A stretch of DNA of 64,000 bases from Aequorivita sp. UBA3180 (GCA_002364215.1 DEXQ01000018.1:183287-247286); one strand, 5' to 3'; shown: positions 5,987 through 25,184, counted from the stretch's first letter. Notes: generated by a model not told the origin, from the letters alone. Made by a program: numbers and translations.

Positions 5987-6016
5987 TTAATTGCTATCGA
6001 CATCAATTAACGATGA

Positions 6017-6054: not shown

Positions 6055-6057
6055 ATT

Positions 6058-9115: not shown

Positions 9116-9174
9116 ATTCTTTAATTTAATGATTCTTAAAGGTGTAAAACTAAATAGTTTTCAAACGAAATTTT

Positions 9175-9188
9175 ATGATAAAAATCAG
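9175..9188 (-). promoter_or_regulatory. FNR-like box in the divergent terB-like / kinase promoter
   Basis: Minus strand CTGAT-TTTT-ATCAT with TAGTTTTA (9145-9152) at a 22-bp gap. On the plus strand TACTTTTG (9213) is at 24 bp. Confidence 0.7.
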
Positions 9189-9224
9189 TTCCAAAAAACT
9201 GTTTAAAATCCTTACTTTTGGGGG

Positions 9225-10460
9225 ATGAAGGTTTTTGAGGGAAAAAAAGGCAATATTTTTAAGATTCTTTCCGAAGCAATATCGGAAGGTATTGTGATAG
9301 TTAACGAAAACCAGGAAATTGTGACCTCAAATGAAGCTGCAGACCGCATGTTTGGTTATGAAGCAAAGGAACTTTTGGGAGAAAATATAAACTTGCTGAT
9401 TCCTCGAGAGTATAGGCACAGCCATACCGAACAGGTTGAGGAATACTTGGAAAAGAGCGATCCGCGCCAAATGGGCCACGGGCGTGATCTTTACGGCCGG
9501 CGCAAGGACGGTAGCGTTTTTCCGGTGGAAGCGGGCTTGAACCCCTTTGAAATTTATGGCAGTAAATATGTAATGGCGCTAGTAACCGATATTACCGTTC
9601 GTAAAACCCAAGAGAAGGAAATTATAGAGCTCAACCTGCATTTGGAGCAAAAAGTGGAGGCGCGAACCAAAGAACTTAAGCAAACAATAAAAGAGTTAAA
9701 GGAGGAAGTTTCAAAACGCAAGGAAGCAGAATATAAAATCATGGAATCGCTTCGAAAAGAAAGAGAGCTCAACGAATTGAAAACGAAATTCCTCTCGTTG
9801 GTTTCCCATGAGTTCAAGACGCCTTTAAGCGGTATTCTTACTTCAGCTACCCTTGTGGGGAAATATACAGAGACAGAGCATCAGGAAAAGCGCGAAAAGC
9901 ATTTAAGAACTATTCAAAATAAAGTGAAATACCTGAATAATATTTTGAACGATTTCCTTTCTATTGAACGTTTAGAGTCTGGCAAGGCTACTTATAAATT
10001 TGATGTCTTCCCGCTGAGCAAAGTAGTGAACGAAGTGATTTATAACGCAAATATGCTTTTGAAGGATGGCCAGCGTATAAATTATCCACAGAACATAGAC
10101 GATATTTTGGTGAATTTTGATGAAAAGATCCTTGAATTATCACTTACCAATCTTATAAACAATGCCATAAAATATTCGCCAGCACACACAGTTATAGATG
10201 TAGTGGTAATTCCACAAAAAGATTCCTTGAGTATAAAAATTATAGATGAAGGGATGGGTATTCCCGAAAAGGAACAGAAATATATTTTCAATAGGTATTT
10301 CCGTGCAGAAAACGCTCTGCTAGACCAAGGCACAGGTATTGGTCTGAATATTGTGAAAAGCCATTTGGAAAGCCTAGATGGTACAATTACCTTTGAAAGC
10401 GAACAGAGCAAAGGCAGTACGTTTACAATTACCTTTCCCACAAATAACAATACAAATTAG
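9225..10460 (+). CDS. PAS-domain sensor histidine kinase, FixL-like heme PAS
   Basis: PAS LIPREYRHSHTEQVEEYL...DPRQMGHGRDLYGRRKDG; HisKA SHEFKTPL; HATPase NLINNAIKYS, DEGMGIP, GTGIGL. Confidence 0.9.
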   Translation: MKVFEGKKGNIFKILSEAISEGIVIVNENQEIVTSNEAADRMFGYEAKELLGENINLLIPREYRHSHTEQVEEYLEKSDPRQMGHGRDLYGRRKDGSVFPVEAGLNPFEIYGSKYVMALVTDITVRKTQEKEIIELNLHLEQKVEARTKELKQTIKELKEEVSKRKEAEYKIMESLRKERELNELKTKFLSLVSHEFKTPLSGILTSATLVGKYTETEHQEKREKHLRTIQNKVKYLNNILNDFLSIERLESGKATYKFDVFPLSKVVNEVIYNANMLLKDGQRINYPQNIDDILVNFDEKILELSLTNLINNAIKYSPAHTVIDVVVIPQKDSLSIKIIDEGMGIPEKEQKYIFNRYFRAENALLDQGTGIGLNIVKSHLESLDGTITFESEQSKGSTFTITFPTNNNTN

Positions 10461-10461
10461 C

Positions 10462-11514
10462 ATGAAGACAATACTTCTTATTGAAGACGATACCGCATTA
10501 AGAGAAAATACAGCTGAACTTTTGGAGCTTTCCGGCTATACCGTTTTTACCGCACCCAATGGTAAAATTGGCATTGAAAGAGCAAAAAAGGAAAACCCGA
10601 GCATCATTGTTTGTGACATAATGATGCCAGAAATTGACGGCTATGGAGTACTTGAAAGTGTAGCTTCGGAAGAAAAAACGAAGCATATCCCTTTTATCTT
10701 TCTTTCGGCAAAAACGGAGCACAAAGAAATTCGCAAAGGTATGGATATGGGGGCGGACGACTACCTTACCAAACCATTTGACGAAGAGGAGTTGTTAAGT
10801 GCCGTAGAAAGCCGTTTGGCAAAAGCGAGTATTTTGGCAATGCGCAAGAACAATAAAGTTGCGGAGACCGATGAGGGTGATGAAAACCCACAGAACCTGA
10901 ACCAGTTGAAAAACTTTTTTTGTGATGAAGGCGAAGTGTCCAATTATAAAAAAGGAGAAACCGTTTACCAAAAAGGTGACCACTCCAACAGTATGTTCCT
11001 AATCTTGAAAGGGGTTGTGAAAACACATACGATGGACGCCAATGCGAAAGAGTTAATTACAGGGCTATACAAAGCCGATGACTTTTTGGGTTTCACTTCT
11101 TTTGACGATAACATTCCCTATAATGAAACCGCTACAGCTGTGGAAGACACTGAAGTTGTGGGAATTTCAAAAACCTATGTGAAGGATATTCTGAAAAAAA
11201 GCCAAGATGTTTCCTTAGAATTGATGAATCTTTTAACCGATAATCTTTCTGAAATAAAGCAGCAATTGGTTAAAATGGCCTACAGCTCCGTTCGGAAAAA
11301 AACGGCCAGCACCATTCTTCAATTTGTGGAGATTATGGACAAAAAACCGGATGCGCCCCTTCGCATCTCACGCAATGACCTTGCTACAACTGCCGGAATT
11401 GCTACCGAAAGCTTGATAAGAACCCTTTCAGATTTCAAAAAAGATGGTATTATTGAAATTGAAGGCCGCGATATTCGCATCGTAGATTTGGATGGTCTTC
11501 GTGATATAAACTAA
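10462..11514 (+). CDS. Response regulator with REC + cNMP-binding + Crp/Fnr HTH domains
   Basis: ILLIEDD, CDIMMP, FLSAK, YLTKPF; then YKKGETVYQKGD..LILKG.VK and ISRNDLATTAGIATESLIRTLSDF. ATG at 10462 follows the kinase stop. Confidence 0.92.
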   Translation: MKTILLIEDDTALRENTAELLELSGYTVFTAPNGKIGIERAKKENPSIIVCDIMMPEIDGYGVLESVASEEKTKHIPFIFLSAKTEHKEIRKGMDMGADDYLTKPFDEEELLSAVESRLAKASILAMRKNNKVAETDEGDENPQNLNQLKNFFCDEGEVSNYKKGETVYQKGDHSNSMFLILKGVVKTHTMDANAKELITGLYKADDFLGFTSFDDNIPYNETATAVEDTEVVGISKTYVKDILKKSQDVSLELMNLLTDNLSEIKQQLVKMAYSSVRKKTASTILQFVEIMDKKPDAPLRISRNDLATTAGIATESLIRTLSDFKKDGIIEIEGRDIRIVDLDGLRDIN

Positions 11515-11539: not shown

Positions 11540-11553
11540 CTGATTTTTATCAT
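11540..11553 (+). promoter_or_regulatory. FNR-like box upstream of usp
   Basis: CTGAT-TTTT-ATCAT; TAATTTTG at 11576 (22-bp gap). Confidence 0.8.
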
Positions 11554-11602: not shown

Positions 11603-12442
11603 ATGATGAACGTATTGATCCCGACGGATTTTTCTGAAAATTCACACAACGCCATTAAGTATGCGCTGACATATTTTTCTGACGTTGCCGTTAATTTTTA
11701 TATTCTTCATGTCTCACCTAAAAATTCAGATTACAAAGAAGAAGAACAACACAGGTTTTCAGATTTTGAGGCTGAGATGCAGACAGTCCAGAGTACTTCC
11801 GTTTTATTAAAGGAAGAAATAAAGACATGCCAGTTTCAGTCCAAGAACCAAGCTCATAAATTCCTTCCCCTGCAGGAAAACATGAATTTGGTGGAAGCCA
11901 TTAGGAAGCAAGTGGCTGAAAAGGAAATAGACTATATTTTAATGGGCACCAAGGGCACTTCAAAATCCAATAGAAGTGAATTGGGAAGCAACACTTGTGA
12001 TGTAATTACTAAGGTAAAATGTCCCATACTTGTAATTCCCGAACATGCAAGGTTCAATGGCATTAAAAACATTGCTTTCTTAACGGATTATAATTGCATT
12101 TACCGCAACAAGGTAATCTCTTCGCTTTCTGAAACGTTGGATTTGCACCGTTCACCACTGCGAGTGCTTCACATAAAAGCGCGAAATAGTGATCTTACCG
12201 CATCACAAACTGACAACAAAGGGTTTTTACATTACTTTTTCAAAGATAAAAAGCACAGTTTCCATTTTGTTGAAAACAAAGACTTGGAAATAGGCATTCA
12301 GGATTTTGTAGAAACCTGGGAAATTAGTCTTGTTTCCATCGTGGCCAAAAACCTTAATCTTATACAAAGACTTTTATTGCGTCCTACGCTAAAATCTGTT
12401 AGTTACACTGCAGATGTGCCCTTTTTGGTACTTCATGAATAG
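11603..12442 (+). CDS. Universal stress protein (tandem)
   Basis: VLIPTDFSENS, ILMGTKG, GSNTCDVITKVKCPILVIP. Confidence 0.93.
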   Translation: MMNVLIPTDFSENSHNAIKYALTYFSDVAVNFYILHVSPKNSDYKEEEQHRFSDFEAEMQTVQSTSVLLKEEIKTCQFQSKNQAHKFLPLQENMNLVEAIRKQVAEKEIDYILMGTKGTSKSNRSELGSNTCDVITKVKCPILVIPEHARFNGIKNIAFLTDYNCIYRNKVISSLSETLDLHRSPLRVLHIKARNSDLTASQTDNKGFLHYFFKDKKHSFHFVENKDLEIGIQDFVETWEISLVSIVAKNLNLIQRLLLRPTLKSVSYTADVPFLVLHE

Positions 12443-12493: not shown

Positions 12494-12718
12494 TCATTCT
12501 TCTCGACCAATTGGGTAATCCTCATAAAAATCCTCAAAGGTTTTAATGGTGGTGTAATTATCTTTTAAAACCTTAAAGACTGAGAATATTAAAAAAGCTT
12601 GACCAAAGACAGTTAAATAAAATACCCAACTAAACGGAAAATCCATAGTGGCAAAGACAGCAACTGTTACCAGAACAAAGGTGGTTATTACAAGATATGT
12701 GATAGCAGAAAAATTCAT
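12494..12718 (-). CDS. Small 2-TM membrane protein
   Basis: 74 aa with two hydrophobic segments and the C-terminal tail KVLKDNYTT.KTFEDFYED. It fills the gap between usp genes. Confidence 0.65.
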   Translation of the reverse strand: MNFSAITYLVITTFVLVTVAVFATMDFPFSWVFYLTVFGQAFLIFSVFKVLKDNYTTIKTFEDFYEDYPIGREE

Positions 12719-12791: not shown

Positions 12792-12805
12792 TTGATATTT
12801 GTCAT
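12792..12805 (+). promoter_or_regulatory. FNR-like box upstream of the usp-usp-usp-ATPcone-MBL operon
   Basis: TTGAT-ATTT-GTCAT; TATCTTTA at 12828 (22-bp gap). Confidence 0.78.
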
Positions 12806-12859: not shown

Positions 12860-13705
12860 ATGCGAAAAATACTCATCCCAACTGATTTCTCTGAAAATTC
12901 AATGAATGCTGTTAAATATGCTACCGAGCTTTTTAAATATGAACGTTCAGAACTATACTTGCTTCACGCTTTTTCCGATTCGGTTTATGAAGATAAGGCC
13001 CGATTAGCCGATGCGGTTTTTGAGGAATTACAGCAAAAGGCACTTCAAAAAGCAAAGGATAATCTAGAGGAAACTCGGAAACAAATTATCGGTTTTTCCC
13101 CTAATCCAAAACACAATTTACACACCATTGCAGAGTTTGGCCTTTTAGTAGATTCGGTAAATGATTGGGTGGAAAAGGAAAATATAGATGTAGTAGTTAT
13201 GGGCACCAAGGGCGAAACTGCCGATAAAAAAATTACTTTTGGCAGCAACACACTTCAGGTAATAAAATATGTAAAATGCCCAGTGCTTGCTATTCCGGCT
13301 GTTTATGGTGATGTGCACCCGAAGCATCTACTGTTCCCAACCGATTATCAATTGCCGTACAAACGCCGCGAGTTAAAACTGGTGAGCAATATTGCAAAAT
13401 GTTTTGTTTCGAAAATGGATTTCCTTTACGTTTCAAAATTTCCGTCACTCTCATTGCGACAGCAGGATAACAAAAAATTTCTGGAAGTCTCTTTCTGTGA
13501 TAACCAAACCAATTTTCATCAAGTTTCTGGAACAAACGTTACAAAAGCCATCAATACCTTTATCATTGAAAACCCAATAGATATGCTTGTCATGGTAAAT
13601 ACCCGCCATTCCTATTTGGAAAACATACTCTACCAGTCTACCATTGAAAAGATAGGGCTCAAAATAGACATTCCTTTTTTAGTACTTCAAAATCTACCGA
13701 GATAA
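12860..13705 (+). CDS. Universal stress protein (tandem)
   Basis: MRKILIPTDFSENS, VVMGTKG, GSNTLQVIKYVKCPVLAIP. Confidence 0.95.
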   Translation: MRKILIPTDFSENSMNAVKYATELFKYERSELYLLHAFSDSVYEDKARLADAVFEELQQKALQKAKDNLEETRKQIIGFSPNPKHNLHTIAEFGLLVDSVNDWVEKENIDVVVMGTKGETADKKITFGSNTLQVIKYVKCPVLAIPAVYGDVHPKHLLFPTDYQLPYKRRELKLVSNIAKCFVSKMDFLYVSKFPSLSLRQQDNKKFLEVSFCDNQTNFHQVSGTNVTKAINTFIIENPIDMLVMVNTRHSYLENILYQSTIEKIGLKIDIPFLVLQNLPR

Positions 13706-13724
13706 ACCTTTAAAAATATTGACA

Positions 13725-14573
13725 ATGAAAAAAATTCTTGTTCCAACCGATTTCTCAAAAAACGCTTATGCTGCTTTGTTTTATGTTACAAAACTCTTTA
13801 GTGATGAAGCGCTGCAAATTACAATTCTCCATTCCTTTGGTGAAGAAGTAGGTAAGCTAACAAGCCGTGTGGATATTGGACGTTCTGAAAATATAATTGA
13901 AAAACTATATCGTCAATCAGATGAGGATGGAGAACAACTGGTTCATAAAATAAAACTTGATTCCTCTAAAGTTGCACACAATTTTGAAGTCATTTCCACC
14001 CCCGCCACTCTATCAAAGACCATTAATAAATTGGTTTCTACGGAAGGGATAGATCTCGTGGTAATGGGCAGCAAGGGCCGCACGGGTGCCGAAGATGTTC
14101 TGGTGGGAAGTACAACTGTAAAAATAACCAAATCTTTAGAAGGGTGTCCGCTGCTCATCGTACCTAGGGAAGTTGATTTTGTTGTTCCCACAAATATAGC
14201 TTTCGCGACAGACTACAATGATTTCTATCAACTTTCAAAATTGAGACCAATCGTTCGTTTGGTGCGACAGTACAATTCAAATATACATATGCTACACGTG
14301 GGGAGTGAAAATGAATTGGATGCCAAACAACAACAAAATCTTGAACAATACCGAAATGACCTTACTGAATATGACACAGAGTTCCATTTCATACCTAAAA
14401 AGGAAAATATTTCAAAAACACTGCACAACTTCATTGATAGCAATAAAATGGACTTATTGGCCTTGGTGTACCACAAACATGCTTTTTTAAAGCAACTCTT
14501 CCGCGAGCCAGTAGTTAGTAGGGTAGGGAAGCACACGCATACACCTACTTTGGTAATTCCTATTAAAAACTAA
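13725..14573 (+). CDS. Universal stress protein (tandem)
   Basis: MKKILVPTDFSKNA, LVVMGSKG..G......GSTT. ATG at 13725. Confidence 0.95.
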   Translation: MKKILVPTDFSKNAYAALFYVTKLFSDEALQITILHSFGEEVGKLTSRVDIGRSENIIEKLYRQSDEDGEQLVHKIKLDSSKVAHNFEVISTPATLSKTINKLVSTEGIDLVVMGSKGRTGAEDVLVGSTTVKITKSLEGCPLLIVPREVDFVVPTNIAFATDYNDFYQLSKLRPIVRLVRQYNSNIHMLHVGSENELDAKQQQNLEQYRNDLTEYDTEFHFIPKKENISKTLHNFIDSNKMDLLALVYHKHAFLKQLFREPVVSRVGKHTHTPTLVIPIKN

Positions 14574-14584
14574 AATTTCAAAAA

Positions 14585-15436
14585 ATGAAAAAGCGAATAT
14601 TAATACCCACAGATTTTTCAAGAAACGCATGGAATGCAATAAAATATGCCATGGAGCTCTATAAGAGGGAATATGTGGAGTTTTTCATATTGCACACCTA
14701 TTACCTTTCAGGGTATTCAAAAGAAAACCTATTGAGTCCTGAACCTACGGAAAAAGATCTAAAAAAAGTTCAGGAAGCTTCAGAGAAAGACATGGAGAAG
14801 CTGAAGGTGCAAATGGGTTTCTATGAAGAAAATGACAACCACACATTTCAATATATGAGTGAATTTGGCTCGTTCTTCGATGTGATGAAAAAGACTGTGG
14901 AAAAGCAGGACATAGAATTGGTAGTTATGGGAACCCAAGGAGAGACGGACAATAAAACCGTTATTTTGGGCAGTAACGCAGTAAATGCAATGGAAAAAAT
15001 TAGAAATTGCCCAGTGCTTGCCATTCCTTCAAATGTGTTATTCAAAGATCCGAATGAAATTGTATTTCCCACTAGCTTTAGAACACATTACAAAGAAAAG
15101 GAATTGGCTACTTTAGTAGAAATTTCACGCTGCACTAACTCCCCAATCCGTATTTTGCATATTCAAAAAGGAAAAAATCTTTCAAAATCGCAACTGGAAA
15201 ATAAAGCTTTGTTGGAAAAAATTCTGGAAGCTGCCAATTACACCCATCATACCCTATACGACATCGAGATTAATGACGGCGTACGCTGTTTCGTGCAAAG
15301 CCGACAGAGCGAGATGATTGCCATTGTAAACAAGAAGCACAATTTCTTTGGAAGTGTATTTTCAAATCCGATGGTCAAAGAACTCGGCAAGCACAGTAAC
15401 GTGCCACTTTTGGCGATGCACGATTTAAGAAATTGA
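14585..15436 (+). CDS. Universal stress protein (tandem)
   Basis: ILIPTDFSRNA, LVVMGTQG, GSNAV..M.K...CPVLAIP. Confidence 0.95.
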   Translation: MKKRILIPTDFSRNAWNAIKYAMELYKREYVEFFILHTYYLSGYSKENLLSPEPTEKDLKKVQEASEKDMEKLKVQMGFYEENDNHTFQYMSEFGSFFDVMKKTVEKQDIELVVMGTQGETDNKTVILGSNAVNAMEKIRNCPVLAIPSNVLFKDPNEIVFPTSFRTHYKEKELATLVEISRCTNSPIRILHIQKGKNLSKSQLENKALLEKILEAANYTHHTLYDIEINDGVRCFVQSRQSEMIAIVNKKHNFFGSVFSNPMVKELGKHSNVPLLAMHDLRN

Positions 15437-16287
15437 GCAAAATGTCAAAAAATCATCAGGATATTGAAGTAATAAAACATTCAGGCCAAAAGGCGAAGTT
15501 TTCAATTGAAAAACTAAAAGGCTCGCTACGGAAAAGCGGCGCGGATGAAGCATTGGTCAACGAAATTGCAAATAACGTCCGCGATGAGCTTTATCAGGGT
15601 ATTTCAACTAAAGAAATCTACAATCGTGCCTTTGCGCTTCTCAAAAAAAAGAAAAAAGGCTACGCTTCAAAATATAAGTTGAAAAAAGCAATTTACGAGC
15701 TTGGTCCCACAGGTTTTCCTTTTGAAAAATTTGTTGGGGCAATCCTTTTTTACAGTGGTTATGAAGTAAAGACAGGGCAGTTTTTACAGGGAAAATGCGT
15801 AACCCACGAAGTAGATGTGGTAGCGCATAAAAACGGACAGTATGTTGTGGCTGAGTGTAAATTCCATAGTGATGAGGGGCGTAATTGTGATATAAAAGTT
15901 CCACTCTATATACATTCCCGCTATCGCGACATTCTCAATTTTTACGCCAATAGTAACAATGGTGAAAAACCAAACGAAGGTTGGGTAGTTACCAATACCC
16001 GTTTTACCGAAGATGCCATAAAATATGGGGAATGCGTTGGCCTCCACCTTTTAAGCTGGGATCTTCCGAAAGATAATGGTATCAAGGACCGTATAGACCG
16101 TTTGGGACTCTATCCTGTTACCGTTTCCACCTTACTAAGTCAGCGAGAGAAACAGTTTTTGCTCAGCCGTGATGTAGTGCTCTGCAAGCAATTGATAAAT
16201 GATCATTTCTATTTGGACCATTTGGGAATTTCAGAAAAAAGAAAAGAGAGGATATTAAATGAGATTGAACAATTATGCAAAAAATAA
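15433..16287 (+). CDS. ATP-cone domain + Mrr-like PD-(D/E)xK restriction endonuclease domain protein (copy 1)
   Basis: N-terminal VIKHSG....F..EKL..SL..SG (ATP cone); C-terminal FEKFV..IL...GY, HEVDVVA, AECKFH. Confidence 0.8.
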   Translation: MSKMSKNHQDIEVIKHSGQKAKFSIEKLKGSLRKSGADEALVNEIANNVRDELYQGISTKEIYNRAFALLKKKKKGYASKYKLKKAIYELGPTGFPFEKFVGAILFYSGYEVKTGQFLQGKCVTHEVDVVAHKNGQYVVAECKFHSDEGRNCDIKVPLYIHSRYRDILNFYANSNNGEKPNEGWVVTNTRFTEDAIKYGECVGLHLLSWDLPKDNGIKDRIDRLGLYPVTVSTLLSQREKQFLLSRDVVLCKQLINDHFYLDHLGISEKRKERILNEIEQLCKK

Positions 16288-17645
16288 AAATCCATTTCCT
16301 CGGTGCAGCGGGAACCGTAACGGGTTCGAAATATTTAATTGAAACTTCTGAAAAGAATATTTTAATAGACTGTGGCATGTTTCAGGGTCTAAAGGAATTG
16401 CGCGAAAAGAATTGGGAGTATTTGCCTATAGATGTTTCAACGATAGATATAGTACTTTTAACACACGGCCATTTAGACCATACGGGCTATTTGCCGCGAT
16501 TGGTAAAACAAGGTTTCCGCGGAAAGATAATCGGAACTGCACCAACACTGGCAATTACTAAAATAATTTTGCTGGACAGTGCCAAAATCCACGAAGAAGA
16601 AGCTGAAAGAGCGAATGAAGGAGGCTATTCCAAACACAAACCCGCCGAGCCGTTTTATAGTGGTGAAGAAGCTGAGGTTACATTAGGTTTTTTCCATGCT
16701 GAAGAAAAAGATAAATGGATTAAACTTTCAGAAAATATACAATATCGGTTTCGGTATAACGGGCATATTATTGGTGCTACTTTCATTGAGCTGGAAATTT
16801 TCGGAAAAATATTTGTCTTTTCGGGTGATATTGGTCGTGAGCACGATTTATTGCTTTCCCCGCCCGAAAAACCGCAATGGGCAGACTATCTTTTTATGGA
16901 AAGCACTTACGGAAACAAATTGCATCCAAAGGAAAGCGTTACGGATAAATTGGTTGAACTCATCACGAAAACCATTCACAACCGCGGCAATTTGATAATT
17001 CCTTCCTTTGCGGTGGAACGCTTACAGACGCTGATGTTTTTACTTTGGAAATTGTATAACGAAAATAAAATTCCAAACATCCCAATTTTTATTGATAGTC
17101 CGATGGGCAATAATGTACTTTCGGTATTTCAAAATTTTCCGGATTGGCACAAACTGCCGATGAAGGATTTTAACGCAATGAACAACCGGATGAATATTAT
17201 TACTTCCTATAAGGAAACTTGGGAAACCATTGACAATCCGCAGCCGAAAGTTGTTATTGCAGGTAGTGGAATGGTTACCGGCGGAAGGGTTCTTACTTAT
17301 TTGAAACAGATGATTGATAAGACAAATACGACCGTTTTATTGGTAGGCTACCAAGCCGAAGGAACCCGAGGAAGACAACTTTTGGAAGGTGCGTATGAGT
17401 TGAAATTCTTTGGAAAATACTATCCCGTAAAAGCTGAAGTCCATCATATAGAAAGTCTTTCAGCCCACGCTGACCAGCAGGGACTTTTGGATTGGACGAG
17501 CAAAATAAAAAATATACCCGAAGAAGTATTTCTAATTCACGGCGAGCCTACGGCGCAGGATGCTTTTCGGGTGAAATTGCATGATACCTATGGATGGAAT
17601 GTAACCATTCCGATGTTATATGAAATAAAGGAGATTGTGATTTAA
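16275..17645 (+). CDS. MBL-fold beta-CASP hydrolase (RNA-processing family)
   Basis: FLGAAGTVTGS, THGHLDH, FSGDIG, MESTYG, PSFAVER, SAHAD, IHGE. Confidence 0.92.
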   Translation: MQKIKIHFLGAAGTVTGSKYLIETSEKNILIDCGMFQGLKELREKNWEYLPIDVSTIDIVLLTHGHLDHTGYLPRLVKQGFRGKIIGTAPTLAITKIILLDSAKIHEEEAERANEGGYSKHKPAEPFYSGEEAEVTLGFFHAEEKDKWIKLSENIQYRFRYNGHIIGATFIELEIFGKIFVFSGDIGREHDLLLSPPEKPQWADYLFMESTYGNKLHPKESVTDKLVELITKTIHNRGNLIIPSFAVERLQTLMFLLWKLYNENKIPNIPIFIDSPMGNNVLSVFQNFPDWHKLPMKDFNAMNNRMNIITSYKETWETIDNPQPKVVIAGSGMVTGGRVLTYLKQMIDKTNTTVLLVGYQAEGTRGRQLLEGAYELKFFGKYYPVKAEVHHIESLSAHADQQGLLDWTSKIKNIPEEVFLIHGEPTAQDAFRVKLHDTYGWNVTIPMLYEIKEIVI

Positions 17646-17650
17646 AATTT

Positions 17651-18226
17651 TTATGCAAATGCAACTACTCCATTGAGAAGGGTATAGATAATAGCGGTTA
17701 TTAACCCTATTAAAAAGATAATGACTGAAACAAATAGAAGTCGCTGTTTATGGGTGATTATTTTGCCTAAAAAATACAAATCGATTATCATTTCGTCATA
17801 AATATTTTGGCCTTTTTTCATTATTCGTTTAAACTCGTTTTTAAATTCAGTTAGCGACAGTTTTGCAAAATTTTCGGCATATAAGGTTCCTTTGTAACCA
17901 CTTTTTTTATAAGATGATCCAAAATATCGATGTGGCACCATACTGAATAGTGCGAAGATCATTGATAGCAAGCTGCAGATTATCAAAATTCGAGTGCCTA
18001 TTTCCAACGGAACTTTCTGCGATTTGGGAACTACAAATAACAAACCTAAAAGTAGTGACGTTATGATAGAATTTACCGTTAGCACTATCCTAGCTTTATT
18101 GTCAACCATTTTTAGAAGATTGTAGTGATTTCGAGAGAGGGTTTTAAATAAAGTTTGCACACCTCGGGCATCATAGCGCTCCAATTTTTCTTGTTTATGA
18201 ATGGTTTCTTTTTCCATAATAAGCAA
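17651..18226 (-). CDS. Pycsar-effector-family (DUF5706) transmembrane protein, stand-alone
   Basis: RNHYNLLKMVDNKARIVLTVNSII, S...ALFSMVP, IYDEM..DLYFLG.I...K..LL..S..IF.IG. Likely ATG at 18217. Confidence 0.75.
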   Translation of the reverse strand: MLIMEKETIHKQEKLERYDARGVQTLFKTLSRNHYNLLKMVDNKARIVLTVNSIITSLLLGLLFVVPKSQKVPLEIGTRILIICSLLSMIFALFSMVPHRYFGSSYKKSGYKGTLYAENFAKLSLTEFKNEFKRIMKKGQNIYDEMIIDLYFLGKIITHKQRLLFVSVIIFLIGLITAIIYTLLNGVVAFA

Positions 18227-19069
18227 TTATAAGTCACATAATTTTTTTATTTCGTTTAAAACTTTTTCCTTTCTCAGTGTAGAAATTCCAATTTTATCCA
18301 ACAAATGAGAGTCTTTATAAAGCTCTTTGGTAAGGATTACATTGTATTTAATGAGGAGATGTTTTTCATTTTTTGTCAATGTGGTTAAGGTGGTGATGGG
18401 GTAGAGGGCAAACTTGTCCACATTCTGTTTTATGCCGTTGTTTTTTGGATAGTCCCAACTCAATAAATGTAGCCCCACACACTTGGCGTAATCAATTGCA
18501 TCGGTTGAAAAGCGCGTGTTAGTTACCAACCAGCCTTGTTTTAAATGAGATGCTTTTTTTGAGTCGTTGTTCCAACATTTTTGAATATCCAAAAACCTGG
18601 AGTTTATGTATAGCGGGACTTTAACATTGCTAACGGCCTTGGGGTCTGCATGGAATTTACATTCAACCGTATAAGTATTACCATCTTTTTCGGCCAGAAC
18701 GTCTACTTCGTGGGTAATACATTCACCTTGCATAATAATGCCCACTTGCGTACTATAGCCGTGATGCTTCAGCAAGGCACTTACCAACTGTTCAAAAGGA
18801 TAGCCTGTTGGGCCTAAATCTAAAATTGCGCGCTTCAAACTGTATTTAGAAGCTGAAGTGCGATTGTGTTTCTTTAAAAGGGAAAAAGCTTTTTTGTAGA
18901 TTTCTTTGGAAGGCATACCATCATATAGCGTGGGCATTATTTGTTCCACAATTTCGTCTATTTCACTTTCTGAGGCTTTGCTTCGCCTTAGCGAAGTTTT
19001 CAACTTTTCCGCATTGAATGTTTCAATTTCTCCGTTGAATTTCTTTATTTCTATGCTGTCATTTTTCAT
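18227..19069 (-). CDS. ATP-cone + restriction endonuclease domain protein (copy 2)
   Basis: IKKFNGEIETFNAEKLKTSLRRS; LGPTGYPFEQLV, HEVDVLA, ECKFH, KVPLYINSR. Clear paralogue of 15433-16287. Confidence 0.8.
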   Translation of the reverse strand: MKNDSIEIKKFNGEIETFNAEKLKTSLRRSKASESEIDEIVEQIMPTLYDGMPSKEIYKKAFSLLKKHNRTSASKYSLKRAILDLGPTGYPFEQLVSALLKHHGYSTQVGIIMQGECITHEVDVLAEKDGNTYTVECKFHADPKAVSNVKVPLYINSRFLDIQKCWNNDSKKASHLKQGWLVTNTRFSTDAIDYAKCVGLHLLSWDYPKNNGIKQNVDKFALYPITTLTTLTKNEKHLLIKYNVILTKELYKDSHLLDKIGISTLRKEKVLNEIKKLCDL

Positions 19070-19080: not shown

Positions 19081-19980
19081 TCAAAATCGTAATATTTCAG
19101 TCATTAAACCGAAACGAATAATATCCAGTTGATGTTGAAAGTAAATATTATAATAATCCAAACCGTGATAAAACTTGATAAAAAAACCGATATCTTCCAA
19201 AAATTTTGGATGATAATAAAATGTGAAAGCACCGCTGAAACGTTTTGTATCAAAGATTTTCCAGTCGTTAATTTCATCAAACATCCAAGTGGTTTCAATT
19301 TTTAATGAAAAGTTTGCCTTTCTTTCCTTACTGAAAAAATCACGATCCAGTGGAAGCTTATAGGCAAAAAACGAATTGTGCCATCGCAGCCCGCTATATT
19401 GTCCCTTTAACTCGTCAAGCATCCAGCTTTTGGGATGGATTTCCAAAGAACTTTTAAAGAATTTTACTGCGTTTACCTGAGAACCATAAGAAGTGTCAAT
19501 GAAACCTATTTCAAGAAAATTGGTTGCAAAATTTCCAGATTGTAAATTTATGGAAGTATCGCTATTGTAAAAATTACCGTCTTGGCCATTGGAATGATGT
19601 GCTATTCTTGCAAACATAGTGGTGTGATGGGCCAATTTCGGGTAGCCAAAGAGATAATACAAAGAGAGTTGTGGAATATAGCTTGGCGTTTTCACAGGAT
19701 ACGACTCTTCATTAAACATTCTAATGGTAATCTGAGGTGTTAGGACCATCATCATTCTTGAATCTGCCCTTTTTCTGACCACAAAATTGGGGTTGAGGTT
19801 GGCCTCGAACATAAGCGGCTCAATATTTCCGACGTCCGTTGGAAATGTTATATAGCTATCGCTTTGATTAATGTGGGCAATTTGAACAAGATATAGTCGA
19901 GGGACTGTATCTGTTTGCTGTTGCGCAAAACTGCTGACAATGCACAATAGAAATACTACGATGTGGAATGTATGAGTCAT
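19081..19980 (-). CDS. Outer-membrane beta-barrel, phospholipase A (OMPLA/PldA)-like
   Basis: Signal peptide; RMFNEES.PV.TPSY.P and RIAHHSNGQ resemble the OMPLA HxSNG catalytic motif; aromatic C-terminus. Confidence 0.55.
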   Translation of the reverse strand: MTHTFHIVVFLLCIVSSFAQQQTDTVPRLYLVQIAHINQSDSYITFPTDVGNIEPLMFEANLNPNFVVRKRADSRMMMVLTPQITIRMFNEESYPVKTPSYIPQLSLYYLFGYPKLAHHTTMFARIAHHSNGQDGNFYNSDTSINLQSGNFATNFLEIGFIDTSYGSQVNAVKFFKSSLEIHPKSWMLDELKGQYSGLRWHNSFFAYKLPLDRDFFSKERKANFSLKIETTWMFDEINDWKIFDTKRFSGAFTFYYHPKFLEDIGFFIKFYHGLDYYNIYFQHQLDIIRFGLMTEILRF

Positions 19981-20369
19981 GTTTTTTTCTTCAAACCATA
20001 GTATATCATTCCTGCAAAAAACAATGTAACCAAAATCCTAAAAAGCATAGCTCCAATGGTACGGCTTTCATACAGGCCATCATTATTGATATAAATGAAC
20101 AGCCCAATATATGCCAGAACGAGTATTATGGCCGCAATTAGCATAACAGATAATGACCATTTTTTTAAAAAAAGATACCCGTAGGAAGCCAAAAGGTATA
20201 AAAGACTTACCATAAAATTTGCCCAAACCACCAAAGGCACATAATTGCCTTCCTTTGCACGTATTCCGAACCAATCAAATATTACGGAACTGCTCAAAAA
20301 AAGTGTGAGCAATGCAAATACAATTAGTAGAACTGCAATAACGTATCTAAATACTTTATTTTTTTTCAT
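19977..20369 (-). CDS. 4-TM membrane protein of unknown function
   Basis: 130 aa with four hydrophobic helices, translationally coupled to neighbours. Confidence 0.7.
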   Translation of the reverse strand: MKKNKVFRYVIAVLLIVFALLTLFLSSSVIFDWFGIRAKEGNYVPLVVWANFMVSLLYLLASYGYLFLKKWSLSVMLIAAIILVLAYIGLFIYINNDGLYESRTIGAMLFRILVTLFFAGMIYYGLKKKT

Positions 20370-20380: not shown

Positions 20381-21130
20381 TTAAAATTTTCTTCGGTTTT
20401 CACCATACCACCATTTTGGTTTGTATTGTTTTTTCACCAATCCAAATCTTTTAATGGCGTGAATTTTTATATGCGCTACAACTTCTTCAGCAGAATCGGT
20501 TACGAAAAGTAGTTTCATATCCTCGTGGCTAATGCTTTCGTTATCTGCCATTGATTGAATGTGGTGACAAAGCTCTTTGTGGTATTCAGAATCGAAAATA
20601 ACAATAGGGAAATTTTCGATTAGTTTAGTTTGTATCAATGTAATTGCTTCAAAGAGTTCATCTAAAGTTCCCATTCCACCAGGCATTACTACGTAGGCAT
20701 AAGAATATTTCATCAATAAAAACTTTCTAACAAAGAAATAGGGAATGTCTATCCATTTGTGCAAATAGGGGTTTGGTTTTTGCTCAAAAGGCAGAATAAT
20801 ATTCACTCCCACAGAATAGCCGCCAGCCTCAAAAGCGCCTTTGTTGGCGGCTTCCATAATACCCGGACCACCTCCTGTCATAATAGTGAACCCTAATTTT
20901 GAAAGTTCAGCTCCAATTTTTTCTGCATTTTGATAGTGTTTGGAATCTGGAGTGAACCGTGCCGAGCCAAAAACAGTAACACAGGGTCCGATAAAGTGCA
21001 TTTTCCGAAAACCACGTACAAATTGGTACAACACCCTTAAAGCAAACCCCAATTCTTTAAACCTTGAAAGGGGCCCCCGAAGGAATGGCGATTCGCTTTT
21101 TTGTAAATGATATTTGATGTTATTTTCCAT
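20381..21130 (-). CDS. LOG family (TIGR00730 Rossmann-fold) nucleotide hydrolase
   Basis: TVFGSAR, TGGGPGIMEAANKG, YFFVRK, MPGGMGTLDELFE. Confidence 0.93.
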   Translation of the reverse strand: MENNIKYHLQKSESPFLRGPLSRFKELGFALRVLYQFVRGFRKMHFIGPCVTVFGSARFTPDSKHYQNAEKIGAELSKLGFTIMTGGGPGIMEAANKGAFEAGGYSVGVNIILPFEQKPNPYLHKWIDIPYFFVRKFLLMKYSYAYVVMPGGMGTLDELFEAITLIQTKLIENFPIVIFDSEYHKELCHHIQSMADNESISHEDMKLLFVTDSAEEVVAHIKIHAIKRFGLVKKQYKPKWWYGENRRKF

Positions 21131-22251
21131 TAATTTACTTTTTTATAGCTCCAAACCGCCAAACCGTTCATTATAATTGCATATAGCAGCGTTTTCCACA
21201 GCTGTGGTAAAATATCCATAAAGCCGGAGCCTTTCAGCATAACCATGCGTACAATCTCTACAAAATATTTTATAGGGTTAAATTCCGTAACTATCTGTGC
21301 CCATTTTGGCATGCTTTCTATTGGTGTAAACAAGCCGCTCATTAAAATAAAAATCACGACAAAAAACCAAGCGATAAACATAGCCTGTTGTTGGGTGTCG
21401 GTGAAATTTGAAATTAGTAGCCCCATTCCTAAAATCACTAAAATATAAATGGAAGTGTATGCGTATAGAAGTATTATGCTGCCTAACATTGGAACATTGA
21501 AAATTACTTTTGCAAGTATCAGCCCAATAGTTAGCAAGCCCATTCCAATTACCCAAAACGGAAATAATTTCCCGATAATAAACTGACTTTTGCGAATGGG
21601 GGTCACGTTGATTTGTTCCAAAGTGCCTATTTCTTTTTCTCTAACAATATTCATCCCAGAGAGAAATAGGGTAATCATAGTTACCAATAGCACTAAAATA
21701 CCTGGGACCATGAAGGTTTTATAATCTAAAGTAGTATTGTACCAAAAGGAAGGGATGCTCTCAATTGTAACGGGCCGTCCAATTTTCTTAGATTTATCCA
21801 TTAAATTAATTTTCACATCTTTATTAAAACTTTGGACAATTTGATTTACATAACCACTTTCCACTCCGGCAGCGGCACCGTCAATAGCGTTAATAGTGAT
21901 GGATAAATTGGTTGTTTTTTCCTTTAGGAGATTTAGTTCAAAATGATTTGGGATTTCCATCACCACATCAACTTCTCCAGCTAACATTGCAGAGCTCGCT
22001 TTTTCTTGTGAGGGAAAATCGGTTAATACATCGAAATAAGTAGAAGCATTAAACTTTTCAATCAATGCGCGGGAGGATGAGGTATGATCGTAATCTATGT
22101 ATGCGAATTTTATGTTTTTTACTTCATAAGTAGCTGCATTGGAGAGTATAACCAATTGGAGAATTGGAAGGATGAAAATGATTGGCAACATCCCTTTATT
22201 TCTAAAGATTTGTTTGAATTCTTTTTGTATTATGTAACCGATAGTCTTCAT
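21130..22251 (-). CDS. ABC-2 type permease (YbhR-like)
   Basis: IQKEFKQIFR, IVREKEIGTLEQINVTP, SGLFTPIESMP. Confidence 0.92.
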   Translation of the reverse strand: MKTIGYIIQKEFKQIFRNKGMLPIIFILPILQLVILSNAATYEVKNIKFAYIDYDHTSSSRALIEKFNASTYFDVLTDFPSQEKASSAMLAGEVDVVMEIPNHFELNLLKEKTTNLSITINAIDGAAAGVESGYVNQIVQSFNKDVKINLMDKSKKIGRPVTIESIPSFWYNTTLDYKTFMVPGILVLLVTMITLFLSGMNIVREKEIGTLEQINVTPIRKSQFIIGKLFPFWVIGMGLLTIGLILAKVIFNVPMLGSIILLYAYTSIYILVILGMGLLISNFTDTQQQAMFIAWFFVVIFILMSGLFTPIESMPKWAQIVTEFNPIKYFVEIVRMVMLKGSGFMDILPQLWKTLLYAIIMNGLAVWSYKKVN

Positions 22252-23357
22252 TATTCCAAGCGTATTTTATATTTTTTCACACTTAACCCAATAAAGAAAA
22301 GGGTCATTCCAATCAAAATCAGCGTTTCTTTCCAGACATATGCCATTCCAACGCCTTTCAGCATGATGCCCTTTATAATGATGATAAACCATTTAGCAGG
22401 AATGATGTTACTGATTACTTGTAATGGTGCTGGCATACTGGATATTGGAAAGATAAATCCAGAAAGTAATATTACGGGAAGCATCAAACCCATCAACGAA
22501 ATCATCATTGCAGACTGTTGAGTTTCTGCGATGGTTGAGATTAAAATTCCCAACGCTAATGATGTGATTATAAACAAAACACTTTCTGTACCCAATAAAA
22601 ATAGACTGCCCTGAACTGGCATCTTAAATATAAAAATGCTCAAAACAACTATTACCGCTGCATTTATAACAGATAGAAAAATATACGGAACCACTTTCCC
22701 GATAATAACCTGAAATGGTTTTAAGGGTGAAACAAGTAGAATTTCCATGGTGCCCAATTCCTTTTCGCGGGTTATGGAGATTGAGGTCATCATAGCCGAA
22801 ACCAGCATTAAAATAATAGTCATAACGCCGGGAACGAACATAAAAACACTTTTAAGTTCTGGATTGTAAACCATCCGTGTCTGCGGAATTATCTGATACT
22901 CTATTACTATATCTTTATTTTTAGATTGTTGATAGTTTTGAAGTATTGAATTGATATAGTTAGTGATCGAATTTGCAGTATTTGGGTCGGTGGCGTCAGT
23001 TATTATTTGAATGGTAGCCTTCTGCTCTTTTATAAGATTTTTGCTGAAATCTTTTTCAAAATTCAAAACTGCTTTTATTTTTCCTTTTTTGAAAGCTGTT
23101 TCAATATCGGTTTCCCGAACAATCATTTGTTTAATGGTGAAATATTTTGAAGCTGAAATCTTATTAATTATTTCTTCTGTGGTAGTATCTTTTGAATGGT
23201 CCAAAATGGCAATATCAACGTTATTGATTTCATTGGTGATAGCAAACCCGAAAAGCAATATTTGGGCAATGGGCATCCCAAAAAGAATGAACAACGACCG
23301 TCTATCCCTGAAGATATGGTAAAACTCCTTTTTTATAAAACCTATAAATCGTTTCAT
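22251..23357 (-). CDS. ABC-2 type permease (YbhS-like)
   Basis: KKEFYHIFRD, ITREKELGTMEILLVSP, LSGFIFPISSMP. Confidence 0.92.
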   Translation of the reverse strand: MKRFIGFIKKEFYHIFRDRRSLFILFGMPIAQILLFGFAITNEINNVDIAILDHSKDTTTEEIINKISASKYFTIKQMIVRETDIETAFKKGKIKAVLNFEKDFSKNLIKEQKATIQIITDATDPNTANSITNYINSILQNYQQSKNKDIVIEYQIIPQTRMVYNPELKSVFMFVPGVMTIILMLVSAMMTSISITREKELGTMEILLVSPLKPFQVIIGKVVPYIFLSVINAAVIVVLSIFIFKMPVQGSLFLLGTESVLFIITSLALGILISTIAETQQSAMMISLMGLMLPVILLSGFIFPISSMPAPLQVISNIIPAKWFIIIIKGIMLKGVGMAYVWKETLILIGMTLFFIGLSVKKYKIRLE

Positions 23358-23360
23358 TTT

Positions 23361-23457
23361 CCCCTCTAACTCCCCAAAGGGGAGAACTTATTTCGTTGTT
23401 AATTTTTAATTGCAATCGGTATTTTTTCCCTTTCCTTTGGGAAGGGTCGGGGATGGG
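23361..23457. repeat. Inverted pair of REP-like CCC..CCCCAAAGGGGAG hairpin elements
   Basis: cccctctaactccccaaaggggag (23361-23384, +) and cccatccccgacccttcccaaaggaaaggg (23428-23457, -). Confidence 0.65.
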
Positions 23458-24182
23458 ATTCTAGCCAATTTCAAAAACACATCGTTCATAGAGTCTACCT
23501 TAAATTGTTCTTTCAATTTCTTTGGTGTGTCCAAAGCTTCTATTTTTCCTTCCACCATTATAGAAACACGGTCGCAGTATTCGGCTTCGTCCATATAATG
23601 CGTGGTTACGAAAATAGTGGTGCCCTGGTCGGCGGCCTTATAGATCATTTCCCAAAACTGTCTTCGGGTTATGGGGTCAACGCCGCCAGTGGGCTCATCC
23701 AAGAAAACAATTTTTGGTTCGTGCAAAAGTGAAACCGAAAATGAAAGCTTTTGTTTCCAGCCCAAAGGCAAGGAGCCAACTAATTTATTACTGATATTTT
23801 CCAGCCCCAATTCAGAAATTAATTCTTCCCTTTTCTCCTTAATTTTTTTTTTGGACAAACCATAAATACCTCCAAAAAATGTAATGTTCTCTTTTACTGT
23901 TAAATCATCATAAAGTGCGAATTTTTGGCTCATATAGCCTATGTTTTTTTTGATGTTTTCGGGCTGGGAATACACATCAAACCCTGCAACAGTAGCTTGG
24001 CCCGAGGAAGGCTTTGAGATTCCTATCAGCATTTTCATAGCCGTGGTTTTTCCTGCGCCGTTCGCTCCCAAAAACCCAAAGATTTCACCTTTTTTGACTT
24101 CAAAACTGATAGTGTTTACAGCTGTGAAATCACCAAATGTTTTGGTTAATTGATTGACTTCTATTACATTTTCTTCTTTCAT
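23406..24182 (-). CDS. ABC transporter ATP-binding protein
   Basis: GANGAGKTT, LPLGWKQ, FLDEPTGG, TTHYMDEAE. Confidence 0.95.
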   Translation of the reverse strand: MKEENVIEVNQLTKTFGDFTAVNTISFEVKKGEIFGFLGANGAGKTTAMKMLIGISKPSSGQATVAGFDVYSQPENIKKNIGYMSQKFALYDDLTVKENITFFGGIYGLSKKKIKEKREELISELGLENISNKLVGSLPLGWKQKLSFSVSLLHEPKIVFLDEPTGGVDPITRRQFWEMIYKAADQGTTIFVTTHYMDEAEYCDRVSIMVEGKIEALDTPKKLKEQFKVDSMNDVFLKLARIPSPTLPKGKGKNTDCN

Positions 24183-25084
24183 TACCGCGCTAATTCCATA
24201 AAGGCATCCTCTATATTTGCTTTGGTAGATTCTATGTGAATAGCTGTTAGGCCTTCTTTTTCCAAATAGGATTGCAAATCACTTATTTCAAATAAATCCC
24301 TCTTGTCGGTATAATGCACAAATTCGCCAAAGGGAAAGACGCTATATACGTGCTCGTATTGCTGCAGCGATTGGATCAATTTGTACATATTAACTGCGCC
24401 CACATTGTAAATGGTTTTCGGGAATTGGCTTACAATGGCTTCGGGTGTGTCGATTTTTAAAATCTTGCCGCCCTGTATCAAGGCAATCCTGTCGCATAAT
24501 GCCGCTTCGTCCATATATGGAGTTGAAACCAAAATGGTAATCCCTTTTTTCTGTAAACGTTTCAACATTTCCCAAAATTCCTTTCGCGAAACCGGGTCAA
24601 CGCCGGTCGTGGGTTCGTCCAGAAAAAGCACTTTAGGTTTGTGAATCAATGCGCAACAGAGGGCGAGTTTTTGCTTCATTCCGCCAGAAAGTTTTCCTGC
24701 GCGTCGATTTTTGAAAGGTTCAATTTGAACGTAAATATCTTCAATCAAATCGTAATTTTCTTCAATCGTAGTTCCGAAAATAGTGGCGAAAAACGCCAGG
24801 TTTTCCTCTACAGTCAAATCTTGGTAAAGCGAAAAGCGCCCGGGCATATAGCCCACTGCCTTTCGAATGGCCTTATAATCTTTTACAACATCAAATCCGG
24901 CAACGGTGGCAGTCCCTTCATCGGAAATTAACAGCGTGGTCAAAATCCTGAAAATGGTGGTTTTCCCGGCGCCATCTGGCCCGATTAGGCCAAAGAGTTC
25001 GCCCGGGTTCACATCAAACGAAATGTCCTGAACTGCTTTTACCTTTTTATAGGATTTGCTGATATTGCTTAGGGAAATGCTCAT
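24182..25084 (-). CDS. ABC transporter ATP-binding protein
   Basis: GPDGAGKTT, LSGGMKQ, FLDEPTTG. Confidence 0.95.
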   Translation of the reverse strand: MSISLSNISKSYKKVKAVQDISFDVNPGELFGLIGPDGAGKTTIFRILTTLLISDEGTATVAGFDVVKDYKAIRKAVGYMPGRFSLYQDLTVEENLAFFATIFGTTIEENYDLIEDIYVQIEPFKNRRAGKLSGGMKQKLALCCALIHKPKVLFLDEPTTGVDPVSRKEFWEMLKRLQKKGITILVSTPYMDEAALCDRIALIQGGKILKIDTPEAIVSQFPKTIYNVGAVNMYKLIQSLQQYEHVYSVFPFGEFVHYTDKRDLFEISDLQSYLEKEGLTAIHIESTKANIEDAFMELAR

Positions 25085-25106
25085 TTCTTTTGTTATTAAA
25101 TTATTA

Positions 25107-25170
25107 AGTTATTGGGTTACTGAGTTATTGGGTTATTCTGAAGTGTTAATAACTGAGTAACCCAATAACT
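25107..25170. repeat. Intergenic inverted repeat built of heptamer-like units
   Basis: agttattgggttact (25107-25121) and its perfect complement agtaacccaataact (25156-25170), plus a second partial copy inside. Confidence 0.7.
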
Positions 25171-25184
25171 CCGTAACTTTTCCC

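Follow-up and report, generated by a model that had tools for sequence, protein, structure and literature searches.

ATP-cone nuclease paralogues at a convergent locus of Aequorivita sp. UBA3180, a probable meeting point of two operon ends

The convergent genes and their ATP-cone nucleases

The window considered here is a stretch of 64,000 nucleotides from Aequorivita sp. UBA3180 (GCA_002364215.1, DEXQ01000018.1:183287-247286), and positions are counted from its first letter. It contains two paralogous genes, here termed ConeA and ConeB, which encode nucleases with an N-terminal ATP-cone and point at each other. Between them lie a gene for a metallo-beta-lactamase (MBL) of the beta-CASP type, on the ConeA side, and a gene for a small membrane protein of the PycTM/DUF5706 type, on the ConeB side. 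All of these proteins are members of catalogued families. An original prediction, made from the sequence of the window, had read the four genes as one mirror-image, nucleotide-gated system for defence or dormancy. The genes and the spacer between them are:

15433-16287, plus strand: ConeA, with a listed TTG start at 15433 and an alternative ATG at 15442
16275-17645, plus strand: beta-CASP MBL, with a 13-nt overlap with the ConeA stop
17646-17650: 5-bp spacer between the convergent stop codons, with no terminator-like structure
17651-18226, minus strand: PycTM/DUF5706-like three-helix membrane protein of 191 amino acids (aa), the facultative last gene of a putative minus-strand operon
18227-19069, minus strand: ConeB, which shares the three domains of its paralogue ConeA and retains the D/E/K triad

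ConeA and ConeB are 51% identical over 273 aa (E 1e-104), and the motifs on which their kinship had been proposed all fall within this alignment. Each consists of an ATP-cone, an Mrr_cat and an AF1548-like_C domain in Pfam searches. ConeB matches AF1548 of Archaeoglobus fulgidus (PDB 1Y88) with an E value of 1e-33 in phmmer. The same structure is the best PDB fold match found by Foldseek (E 3.7e-15, target-normalised TM-score (TMt) 0.81) for an AlphaFold2 model of ConeA, which was built on a 43-sequence alignment and has a predicted local distance difference test score (pLDDT) of 92.8 and a predicted TM-score (pTM) of 0.86. The next fold matches are Cdn1, Can2 and Card1, followed by MspJI-type enzymes. 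The likeness to AF1548 extends over the nuclease core and the C-terminal helical domain, and the predicted catalytic residues D38, E51 and K53 of AF1548 (PMC1821046) align with the Cone D, E and K. These residues, D128, E141 and K143, are invariant across the 43 sequences, including ConeA and ConeB. AF1548 itself has neither an ATP-cone nor an assigned function, whereas the Cone proteins add the N-terminal ATP-cone and a conserved LGPxGxPFE linker.

The N-terminal ~85 residues of the ConeA model superpose on the ATP-cones of NrdR and ribonucleotide reductase (RNR) with a root-mean-square deviation of 1.5-2.5 Å over ~80 residues. In fold, this part of the Cone proteins therefore resembles NrdR and the activity sites of class I and III RNRs, and both paralogues lie above the Pfam cut-off for the ATP-cone (PF03477, 25.8 bits), if barely, with 29.2 bits for ConeA and 28.9 bits for ConeB. 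Their output is different, being a nuclease in place of a zinc-ribbon repressor or a reductase. Two cone lysines, K15 and K84, are invariant and a third, K27, is at least 90% conserved, their equivalence to RNR and NrdR sites being by sequence only. From RNR and NrdR structures, we take the K-R dyad and the lysines that follow it to bind the nucleotide phosphates; in the Cone proteins the residue after K15 is H, F, A, Y or others instead of R. Neither the Cone nor the PycTM proteins are covered by an NCBIfam model, and a literature search on AF1548 and on ATP-cone endonucleases with beta-CASP proteins found no functional study of a Cone nuclease.

Coupling of Cone nucleases to a beta-CASP enzyme and to low-oxygen genes

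The proposed beta-CASP partner of ConeA is confirmed by Pfam, which assigns it Lactamase_B, Beta-Casp (114 bits) and RMMBL (72 bits) domains. The HxHxDH motif reads THGHLDH in translation, and the protein belongs to the RNA-specific clade. Its best PDB matches are the RNase TTHA0252 of Thermus thermophilus and Cas14 of type VII CRISPR systems (both E ~1e-70), with which it shares the architecture of MBL, beta-CASP and RMMBL domains. In contrast to Cas14, no cas genes are present among the annotated neighbours of the window MBL. In contrast to TTHA0252, MBLs of this type are paired with an ATP-cone nuclease, and in one genome fused to one. A classification as Cas14 was rejected, as the NCBIfam score of 395 bits falls short of the cut-off of 800 and only positions 1-425 of the 612 in the model are matched, leaving its C-terminal third unmatched.

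Within the Bacteroidota, Cone and MBL genes form a robust pair in the order Cone>MBL. A Cone nuclease is present in 44 of 301 sampled Bacteroidota genomes, and in the 43 Cone-bearing genomes other than this one an MBL gene lies directly 3' on the same strand for 26 of the 46 Cone genes. Among ConeA-type metagenome loci with enough downstream sequence, nearly all read Cone>MBL, and metagenome loci repeat the order of kinase, regulator, Usp run, ConeA and MBL found in the window. In a genome from another class of Bacteroidota (G045), the two proteins are naturally fused: a single open reading frame (ORF) of 765 aa (L088:5903-8200, minus strand) encodes ATP-cone, Mrr_cat, AF1548_C, MBL, beta-CASP and RMMBL domains in succession. 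This fusion gene is flanked by genes for AhpC and Hsp33.

Upstream of ConeA, the plus-strand arm of the locus comprises the following features:

9225-10460, plus strand: PAS-histidine kinase (Pfam)
10378-11514, plus strand: regulator with receiver, cyclic-nucleotide-binding and Crp-type helix-turn-helix domains (Pfam)
11541-11552: palindromic box TGATTTTTATCA, 51 bp upstream of Usp1
11603-12442: Usp1, the first tandem-Usp gene
12494-12718, minus strand: ORF of 74 aa with two hydrophobic stretches, lying between Usp1 and Usp2 and parting Usp1 from the string that runs from Usp2 to the MBL
12793-12804, plus strand: box TGATATTTGTCA, 56 bp upstream of Usp2, a candidate control site for Usp2-Usp3-Usp4-ConeA-MBL
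12860-13705, plus strand: Usp2, tandem-domain
13719-14573, plus strand: Usp3, tandem-domain
14585-15436, plus strand: Usp4, tandem-domain (Pfam Usp)

The genes from Usp2 to the MBL follow one another at spacings of 13, 11, -4 and -13 nt, and we regard Usp2-Usp3-Usp4-ConeA-MBL as a putative box-controlled low-oxygen operon. The original prediction had placed one arm under a hypoxia box, and at the level of sequence this holds. The motif TGAT-N4-RTCA is enriched in the window, with 15 matches on both strands against 4.3 ± 2.8 in shuffled sequences, and nine of its 10 distinct sites lie just upstream of genes, among them Usp1, Usp2 and the kinase. The classical FNR box, TTGAT-N4-ATCAA with one mismatch, was also tried and is not enriched (10 matches against 5.8 expected). 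The kinase and the Crp-type regulator are the likely regulators of this box regulon; the two genes are likewise found before Usp-Cone-MBL strings of other genera (L084, L085, L093, L094), and runs of Usp genes stand ahead of ConeA-type genes in many loci. Across the phylum, the neighbours of Cone genes include those for Usp, a P-type ATPase, a D-2-hydroxyacid dehydrogenase, an M50-CBS peptidase, glutaredoxin and CDGSH proteins, which are stress and low-oxygen genes and not defence genes.

Two further places in the window bear on this regulon. Just upstream of the kinase and regulator pair (5150-7480), a tandem-Usp gene lies beside genes for a PNP_UDP_1 purine/uridine nucleoside phosphorylase and a DeoC-type aldolase, so that further nucleoside-catabolic genes adjoin the putative low-oxygen regulon. 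A perfect TGATTTATATCA box is found at 29647-29658, in the divergent intergenic region between a TetR gene (start 29545, minus strand) and a gene at 29781 (plus strand). This box could put the TetR efflux regulator, or the 210-aa gene, under the same low-oxygen regulator.

A third paralogue, ConeC, is encoded on contig C11 of the same genome, in the order Usp, ConeC, an ORF of 84 aa, MBL, a member of the thymidine/AMP-phosphorylase family and a member of the phosphoribosyl pyrophosphate (PRPP)-synthase family. The C11 MBL is 58% identical to that of the window, and the phosphorylase-like protein is ~40% identical to archaeal AMP phosphorylases, whose pathway provides a biochemical analogue. 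The cassette of Cone, MBL, phosphorylase and PRPP synthase is also found on a Pontibacter plasmid and on a plasmid of Criblamydia (Chlamydiota). In the latter case (C. sequanensis plasmid L134, NZ_LK031773.1 5885-18634), one strand carries genes for a P-type ATPase, phosphoketolase, glycogen phosphorylase, the ATP-cone nuclease, MBL, thymidine/AMP-phosphorylase, PRPP synthase and acetate kinase, an arrangement suggestive of a link between the cassette and fermentative ATP generation. Loci from other families of the class show reduced arrangements, with the Cone gene directly beside the phosphorylase and PRPP synthase genes and no MBL gene (L119), or directly beside a LOG homologue (L125). The ~84-aa ORF between the ConeC-type nuclease and the MBL is conserved in loci of the order Usp>Cone>ORF>MBL>phosphorylase>PRPP synthase (L188:8889-9143; also L184, L191, L202, L219 and L178, and in the present genome at L006 ~9000-9375, where the sequence at ~9020-9160 (C11 ~39.0 kb), across the 3' end of ConeC and the start of the ORF, reads as N). 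Its product is acidic and helical and has an invariant tail, PSCCGGH or PPCCGGH.

The phosphorylase of this cassette is common on proteobacterial plasmids, matching 127 plasmid records against 2 for the Cone nuclease, and an Agrobacterium plasmid carries the MBL, phosphorylase and PRPP synthase genes with no Cone gene. In Bradyrhizobium diazoefficiens, bll3115-3117 are annotated as an MBL fold metallo-hydrolase, a ribose-phosphate pyrophosphokinase and a thymidine phosphorylase family protein (PMC6515984, Table 2). Their products belong to the core microoxic proteome, with log2 fold changes of 2.9, 4.4 and 2.1, and their transcripts are induced 15.4-, 7.7- and 5.1-fold under microoxia (PMC6515984). 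The homology of these three genes to those described here is by annotation and gene order only. The C11 locus is thus like a low-oxygen cassette in that its beta-CASP, AMP-phosphorylase-like and PRPP-synthase-like genes are all adjacent. In contrast, the ConeA-MBL pair of the window has no phosphorylase or PRPP synthase gene, and neither the Agrobacterium copy nor the three annotated Bradyrhizobium genes show a Cone gene. For the window arm, low-oxygen induction is inferred from the box at 12793 and the adjacent kinase and regulator; it has been shown for the like-annotated genes of B. diazoefficiens (PMC6515984).

The ABC/LOG operon, its PycTM tail and the junction

On the minus strand, ConeB is preceded by these genes:

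19081-19980, minus strand: u299, with a signal peptide, an HxSNG motif and no family match
19977-20369, minus strand: u130, with four predicted membrane helices (read from sequence)
20381-21130, minus strand: LOG/SLOG-family protein (Pfam Lysine_decarbox, 113.8 bits)
21130-22251, minus strand: ABC-2 permease (Pfam)
22251-23357, minus strand: ABC-2 permease (Pfam)
23406-24182, minus strand: ABC ATPase (Pfam)
24182-25084, minus strand: ABC ATPase (Pfam)

The ABC ATPases and permeases are the conserved core of the putative operon that has ConeB and PycTM at its tail. Upstream of ConeB, this tail also includes u299 and u130, which are conserved yet dispensable. Orthologues of ConeB, 57-91% identical, occur in 75 genome loci. 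In most of these, a string of ABC ATPases, ABC-2 permeases, LOG, u130 and u299 has ConeB as its final conserved member, and the position of ConeB is syntenic across the Flavobacteriaceae. Members of the LOG family are annotated as nucleotide 5'-monophosphate nucleosidases. Further upstream in the window lie a TetR gene and genes for an outer-membrane efflux protein (OEP, TolC-like) and HlyD.

Two observations concern the less familiar parts of this arm. The 299-aa u299 product is a secreted or outer-membrane protein, conserved upstream of ConeB in most flavobacteriaceal loci, for which there is no Pfam match and no PDB sequence match. Its HHSNGQDG stretch recalls the HxSNG motif of outer-membrane phospholipase A, its one likeness to that enzyme. 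Between an OsmC-like gene and the first ABC ATPase gene, an inverted repeat at 25098-25179 has 32-nt arms that are 84% complementary, an 18-nt loop and GTTATTGGGTTA-like units; it could be a terminator or operator splitting the minus-strand gene string.

The 191-aa protein does carry the PycTM domain, as it matches PF18967 with 64.5 bits (cut-off 27.2) and the PADLOC PycTM model with an E value of 1.6e-13. It has the size of stand-alone PycTM effectors. The prediction had also named the recurrence of PycTM with Cone nucleases in other genomes as a test. They do co-occur, with ConeB, in several genera; however, a ~190-aa PycTM gene lies directly 3' of ConeB in just 16 of the 69 orthologous loci with enough downstream sequence, and in the phylum-wide sample PycTM never adjoins a Cone gene. 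On the Cone tree, no fewer than 12 gain or loss events are needed to account for the presence of PycTM, where shuffled labels need 18.6 ± 1.4. PycTM is therefore clustered on the tree, yet labile.

The PycTM subfamily was surveyed in 300 other genomes of the Flavobacteriaceae, about one per genus, and was found in five of them. In two (G356 and G571) it lies 3' of ConeB. In the others, it ends the same ABC-LOG-u130 operon where ConeB is absent (L228), lies 4 kb from the ABC-LOG operon on the opposite strand (L229) or lies elsewhere (L230). A copy that is 59% identical occurs in a distant Bacteroidota genome (G100), flanked by two methyltransferase genes, one of them for an RNA methyltransferase. 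These placements tie PycTM to the operon tail and not to ConeB as such. The orthologues are strongly conserved, with 70% mean column identity in their alignment.

The window PycTM is also 33% identical to the C-terminal half of a larger protein of its own genome:

L007:7799-8983, C12 ~431.8-433.0 kb: HD-DUF5706 protein of 394 aa, with an HD-type N-terminal motif (read by eye) and a PycTM domain

This protein scores 131 bits against PF18967, far above the window copy, and PycTM-domain proteins of ~400 aa are present at one per genome in nearly all sampled Flavobacteriaceae. A structure model of the window PycTM is mediocre (pLDDT 72) and gives no significant PDB fold match. As had been noted before, Pfam finds no cyclase, methyltransferase or HD domain among the neighbours. 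No class III cyclase gene is near PycTM, the only PF00211 match in the genome being at C12:318780, 117 kb away. In related loci, the conserved flanks of PycTM are ConeB, the ABC/LOG operon or the MBL gene, and no cyclase stands beside it among them, the variable downstream ORFs not having been screened with a cyclase model. A literature search on PycTM/DUF5706 found no functional study of a PycTM protein that lacks a cyclase.

The two arms meet with their inner stop codons 5 bp apart and, in agreement with the original prediction, no evident terminator lies between them. Pattern scanning gives just a weak stem within the coding end of the MBL gene, and folding of the junction on both strands is no better than that of shuffled sequences, with z-scores of -0.17 and -0.75. 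Scans for sigma-70 promoters and intrinsic terminators over 11-30 kb of the window stayed at background level. The facing arrangement of ConeB and an MBL gene is confined to Aequorivita and its nearest relatives (L009-L016, L033, L231), and it varies even there: PycTM is missing in L009, L012 and L013 despite the mirror layout, and in L011 and L016 the arms are separated by an insertion of 2.9-3.4 kb. In two metagenome relatives (L146 and L147, with ConeA 93% and 90% identical), the MBL stop directly abuts an ABC-2 permease gene and the entire tail of LOG, u130, u299, ConeB and PycTM is absent. In other genera, the two arms occupy separate loci (L083-L087 for one, L019-L082 for the other).

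Since the layout is confined to one lineage, PycTM or the whole ConeB tail is missing in close relatives and insertions occur at the junction, selection is not maintaining it. The separate loci elsewhere and the variable junction therefore make it an accident of synteny, and the idea that the four genes form one mirror-image system has to be given up. The idea of a nucleotide-gated nuclease fares better: both Cone proteins are intact and sensor-fused, with an invariant catalytic triad and a cone fold modelled for ConeA, even though they are not parts of a single four-gene system.

Competing explanations and a possible role

On balance, we consider it somewhat probable that two independent, separately conserved operons end against each other in this region, each in a paralogue of the ATP-cone/AF1548-type nuclease, and that these serve the recycling of nucleic acids and nucleotides under low oxygen or stress. 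On the plus strand (arm 1), the beta-CASP RNase would make up a conserved nuclease module of two genes together with ConeA, transcribed along with the tandem Usp genes from behind a box of the Crp/FNR type, which the adjacent PAS-kinase and receiver-Crp regulator would serve. At low oxygen or low energy charge, the ATP-cone may read the adenylate or dATP state and license the PD-(D/E)xK endonuclease. Its cuts would give the beta-CASP enzyme entry, leading, in arm 1 and at the C11 locus, to degradation down to mononucleotides. These would then be split by enzymes that cleave nucleoside monophosphates (NMPs), namely the AMP-phosphorylase-like protein with the PRPP-synthase-like protein at the C11 locus and LOG in arm 2, so that base and ribose phosphate could be recycled. 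ConeB would be a vertically inherited paralogue working without an MBL of its own at the tail of an operon for an ABC exporter and LOG. That operon would optionally end in the gene for the PycTM-like membrane protein, which on this reading corresponds to the membrane half of the housekeeping HD-DUF5706 protein standing alone and is not a Pycsar effector.

Several points weigh against this proposal. The ATP-cone is divergent, its canonical K-R dyad reading K-[H/F/A/Y]; because the cone scores are marginal and the dyad is altered, the ligand is not certain and may not be ATP or dATP. The substrate of the nuclease may be RNA or DNA, and the fold neighbours of the nuclease domain include the defence-type, ligand-gated Can2, Card1 and Cdn1. 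In most genomes ConeB has no cognate MBL, and its role may differ from that of ConeA. Arm 1 of the window itself carries neither an NMP phosphorylase nor a PRPP synthase gene, the link to these enzymes being drawn from the paralogous locus and from other genomes. Finally, PycTM is very strongly conserved and stands at the tail of the ABC/LOG operon in three different arrangements; this conservation and placement argue for some real functional tie beyond what the proposal explains.

The likeness to Can2, Card1 and Cdn1 of type III CRISPR, which likewise fuse a small-molecule sensor to a PD-(D/E)xK nuclease of similar fold, and the weak CARF_PDDEXK hits of the Cone proteins in PADLOC lend some credit to a role in anti-phage defence. 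In such an abortive infection system of ConeB and PycTM, with or without ConeA and the MBL, the cone would sense a change of the nucleotide pool caused by the phage, the nuclease would degrade nucleic acid and PycTM would permeabilise the membrane. The PF18967 and PADLOC PycTM matches, the spacing of 0-12 bp between the ConeB stop and the PycTM start in several genera and the patchy occurrence of PycTM, with its 12 or more gain and loss events, are what such a system could show. We nevertheless judge it improbable. The Cone sensor is an ATP-cone and not a CARF domain, there is no CRISPR or cyclase context, and the Cone genes are vertically inherited in stress operons, the position of ConeB being syntenic and fixed over dozens of genera. 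No Cone homologue was found in a phage collection, and the nuclease occurs on just 2 of 72,556 plasmids. Unlike a Pycsar effector, the window PycTM has no PycC cyclase beside or near it, stands at the tail of a conserved ABC/LOG operon and is paralogous to the membrane half of the near-universal HD-DUF5706 proteins. Its orthologues are unusually conserved, can end the operon in the absence of ConeB and, in G100, occupy a housekeeping context. The surroundings are those of an efflux pump, LOG and stress genes, and not of a mobile element or defence island; restriction-modification, integrase and other defence genes are absent among the neighbours. Of the two roles first envisaged, dormancy remains attractive because the ConeA/MBL arm sits in a putative low-oxygen regulon, whereas an anti-phage role finds no cyclase partner, phage hits or defence neighbours.

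Two other explanations are less probable still. The Cone proteins could be Mrr-like type IV restriction or DNA-repair endonucleases that act on DNA, with no part in RNA or nucleotide recycling, as might be read from the Mrr_cat matches, the fold matches to MspJI and AspBHI, the NCBI label 'restriction endonuclease' and the AF1548-like C-terminal domain, which could bind DNA. This seems very unlikely to us, given that the proteins have no modification-reading domain, methyltransferase or McrBC-like partner. Their conserved partner is an RNA-clade beta-CASP protein with an RMMBL domain, to which they are fused in one genome, their neighbours are nucleotide-cleaving and stress genes, and the Cone genes show vertical inheritance, with a single copy in most genomes. 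Similarly, there is little to recommend the suggestion that the convergent layout is itself regulatory, with read-through antisense transcription across the 5-bp junction causing the hypoxia arm to exclude the ABC/ConeB/PycTM arm and vice versa. The close-set stop codons with nothing terminator-like between them, and the presence of a box on arm 1 only, would suit it; however, the restriction of the layout to Aequorivita and its closest relatives, the absence of PycTM or of the whole ConeB tail in five relatives and the insertions between the arms in two others would not. Convergent gene ends with short spacers are, moreover, common in compact genomes. Antisense interference across the junction is at most a local, lineage-specific side effect.

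If the recycling proposal is pursued further, a bolder and distinctly doubtful form of it can be entertained. The Cone nuclease and the beta-CASP RNase would then act as an energy-charge-gated degradosome that opens stable RNA in hypoxic or dormant cells and passes NMPs to the AMP-phosphorylase-like enzyme or LOG, a new bacterial route of salvage and energy from RNA to ribose phosphate that exists in three differently wired copies. DUF5706/PycTM proteins, stand-alone here and joined to an HD phosphohydrolase elsewhere, would be cyclase-independent membrane proteins that respond to nucleotides and connect this flow of nucleotides to the envelope or to the ABC exporter.

Several aspects of this locus are new, namely the presence of three differently wired Cone paralogues in one genome, one of them in a Usp operon that is probably box-controlled, the natural Cone-MBL fusion and, at the tail of an ABC/LOG operon, a PF18967 protein that has no cyclase. 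HD-fused proteins, which are near-universal, have this domain as their membrane half, and it also stands as a conserved operon tail gene without a cyclase; PF18967 hits in Bacteroidota, listed as 'Pycsar effector', are therefore mostly not Pycsar; this calls for caution in the prediction of defence systems. The genome is a convenient test case, with its three paralogues in a putative hypoxia operon, a nucleotide-cleavage cassette and an efflux/LOG operon, and the natural fusion should be of use for structural work. If the recycling proposal is true, the Cone/beta-CASP pair would directly link adenylate status to bulk nucleic-acid turnover in oxygen-starved bacteria, and would be the regulated entry step of a widespread, low-oxygen-induced cassette of beta-CASP protein, NMP phosphorylase and PRPP synthase.

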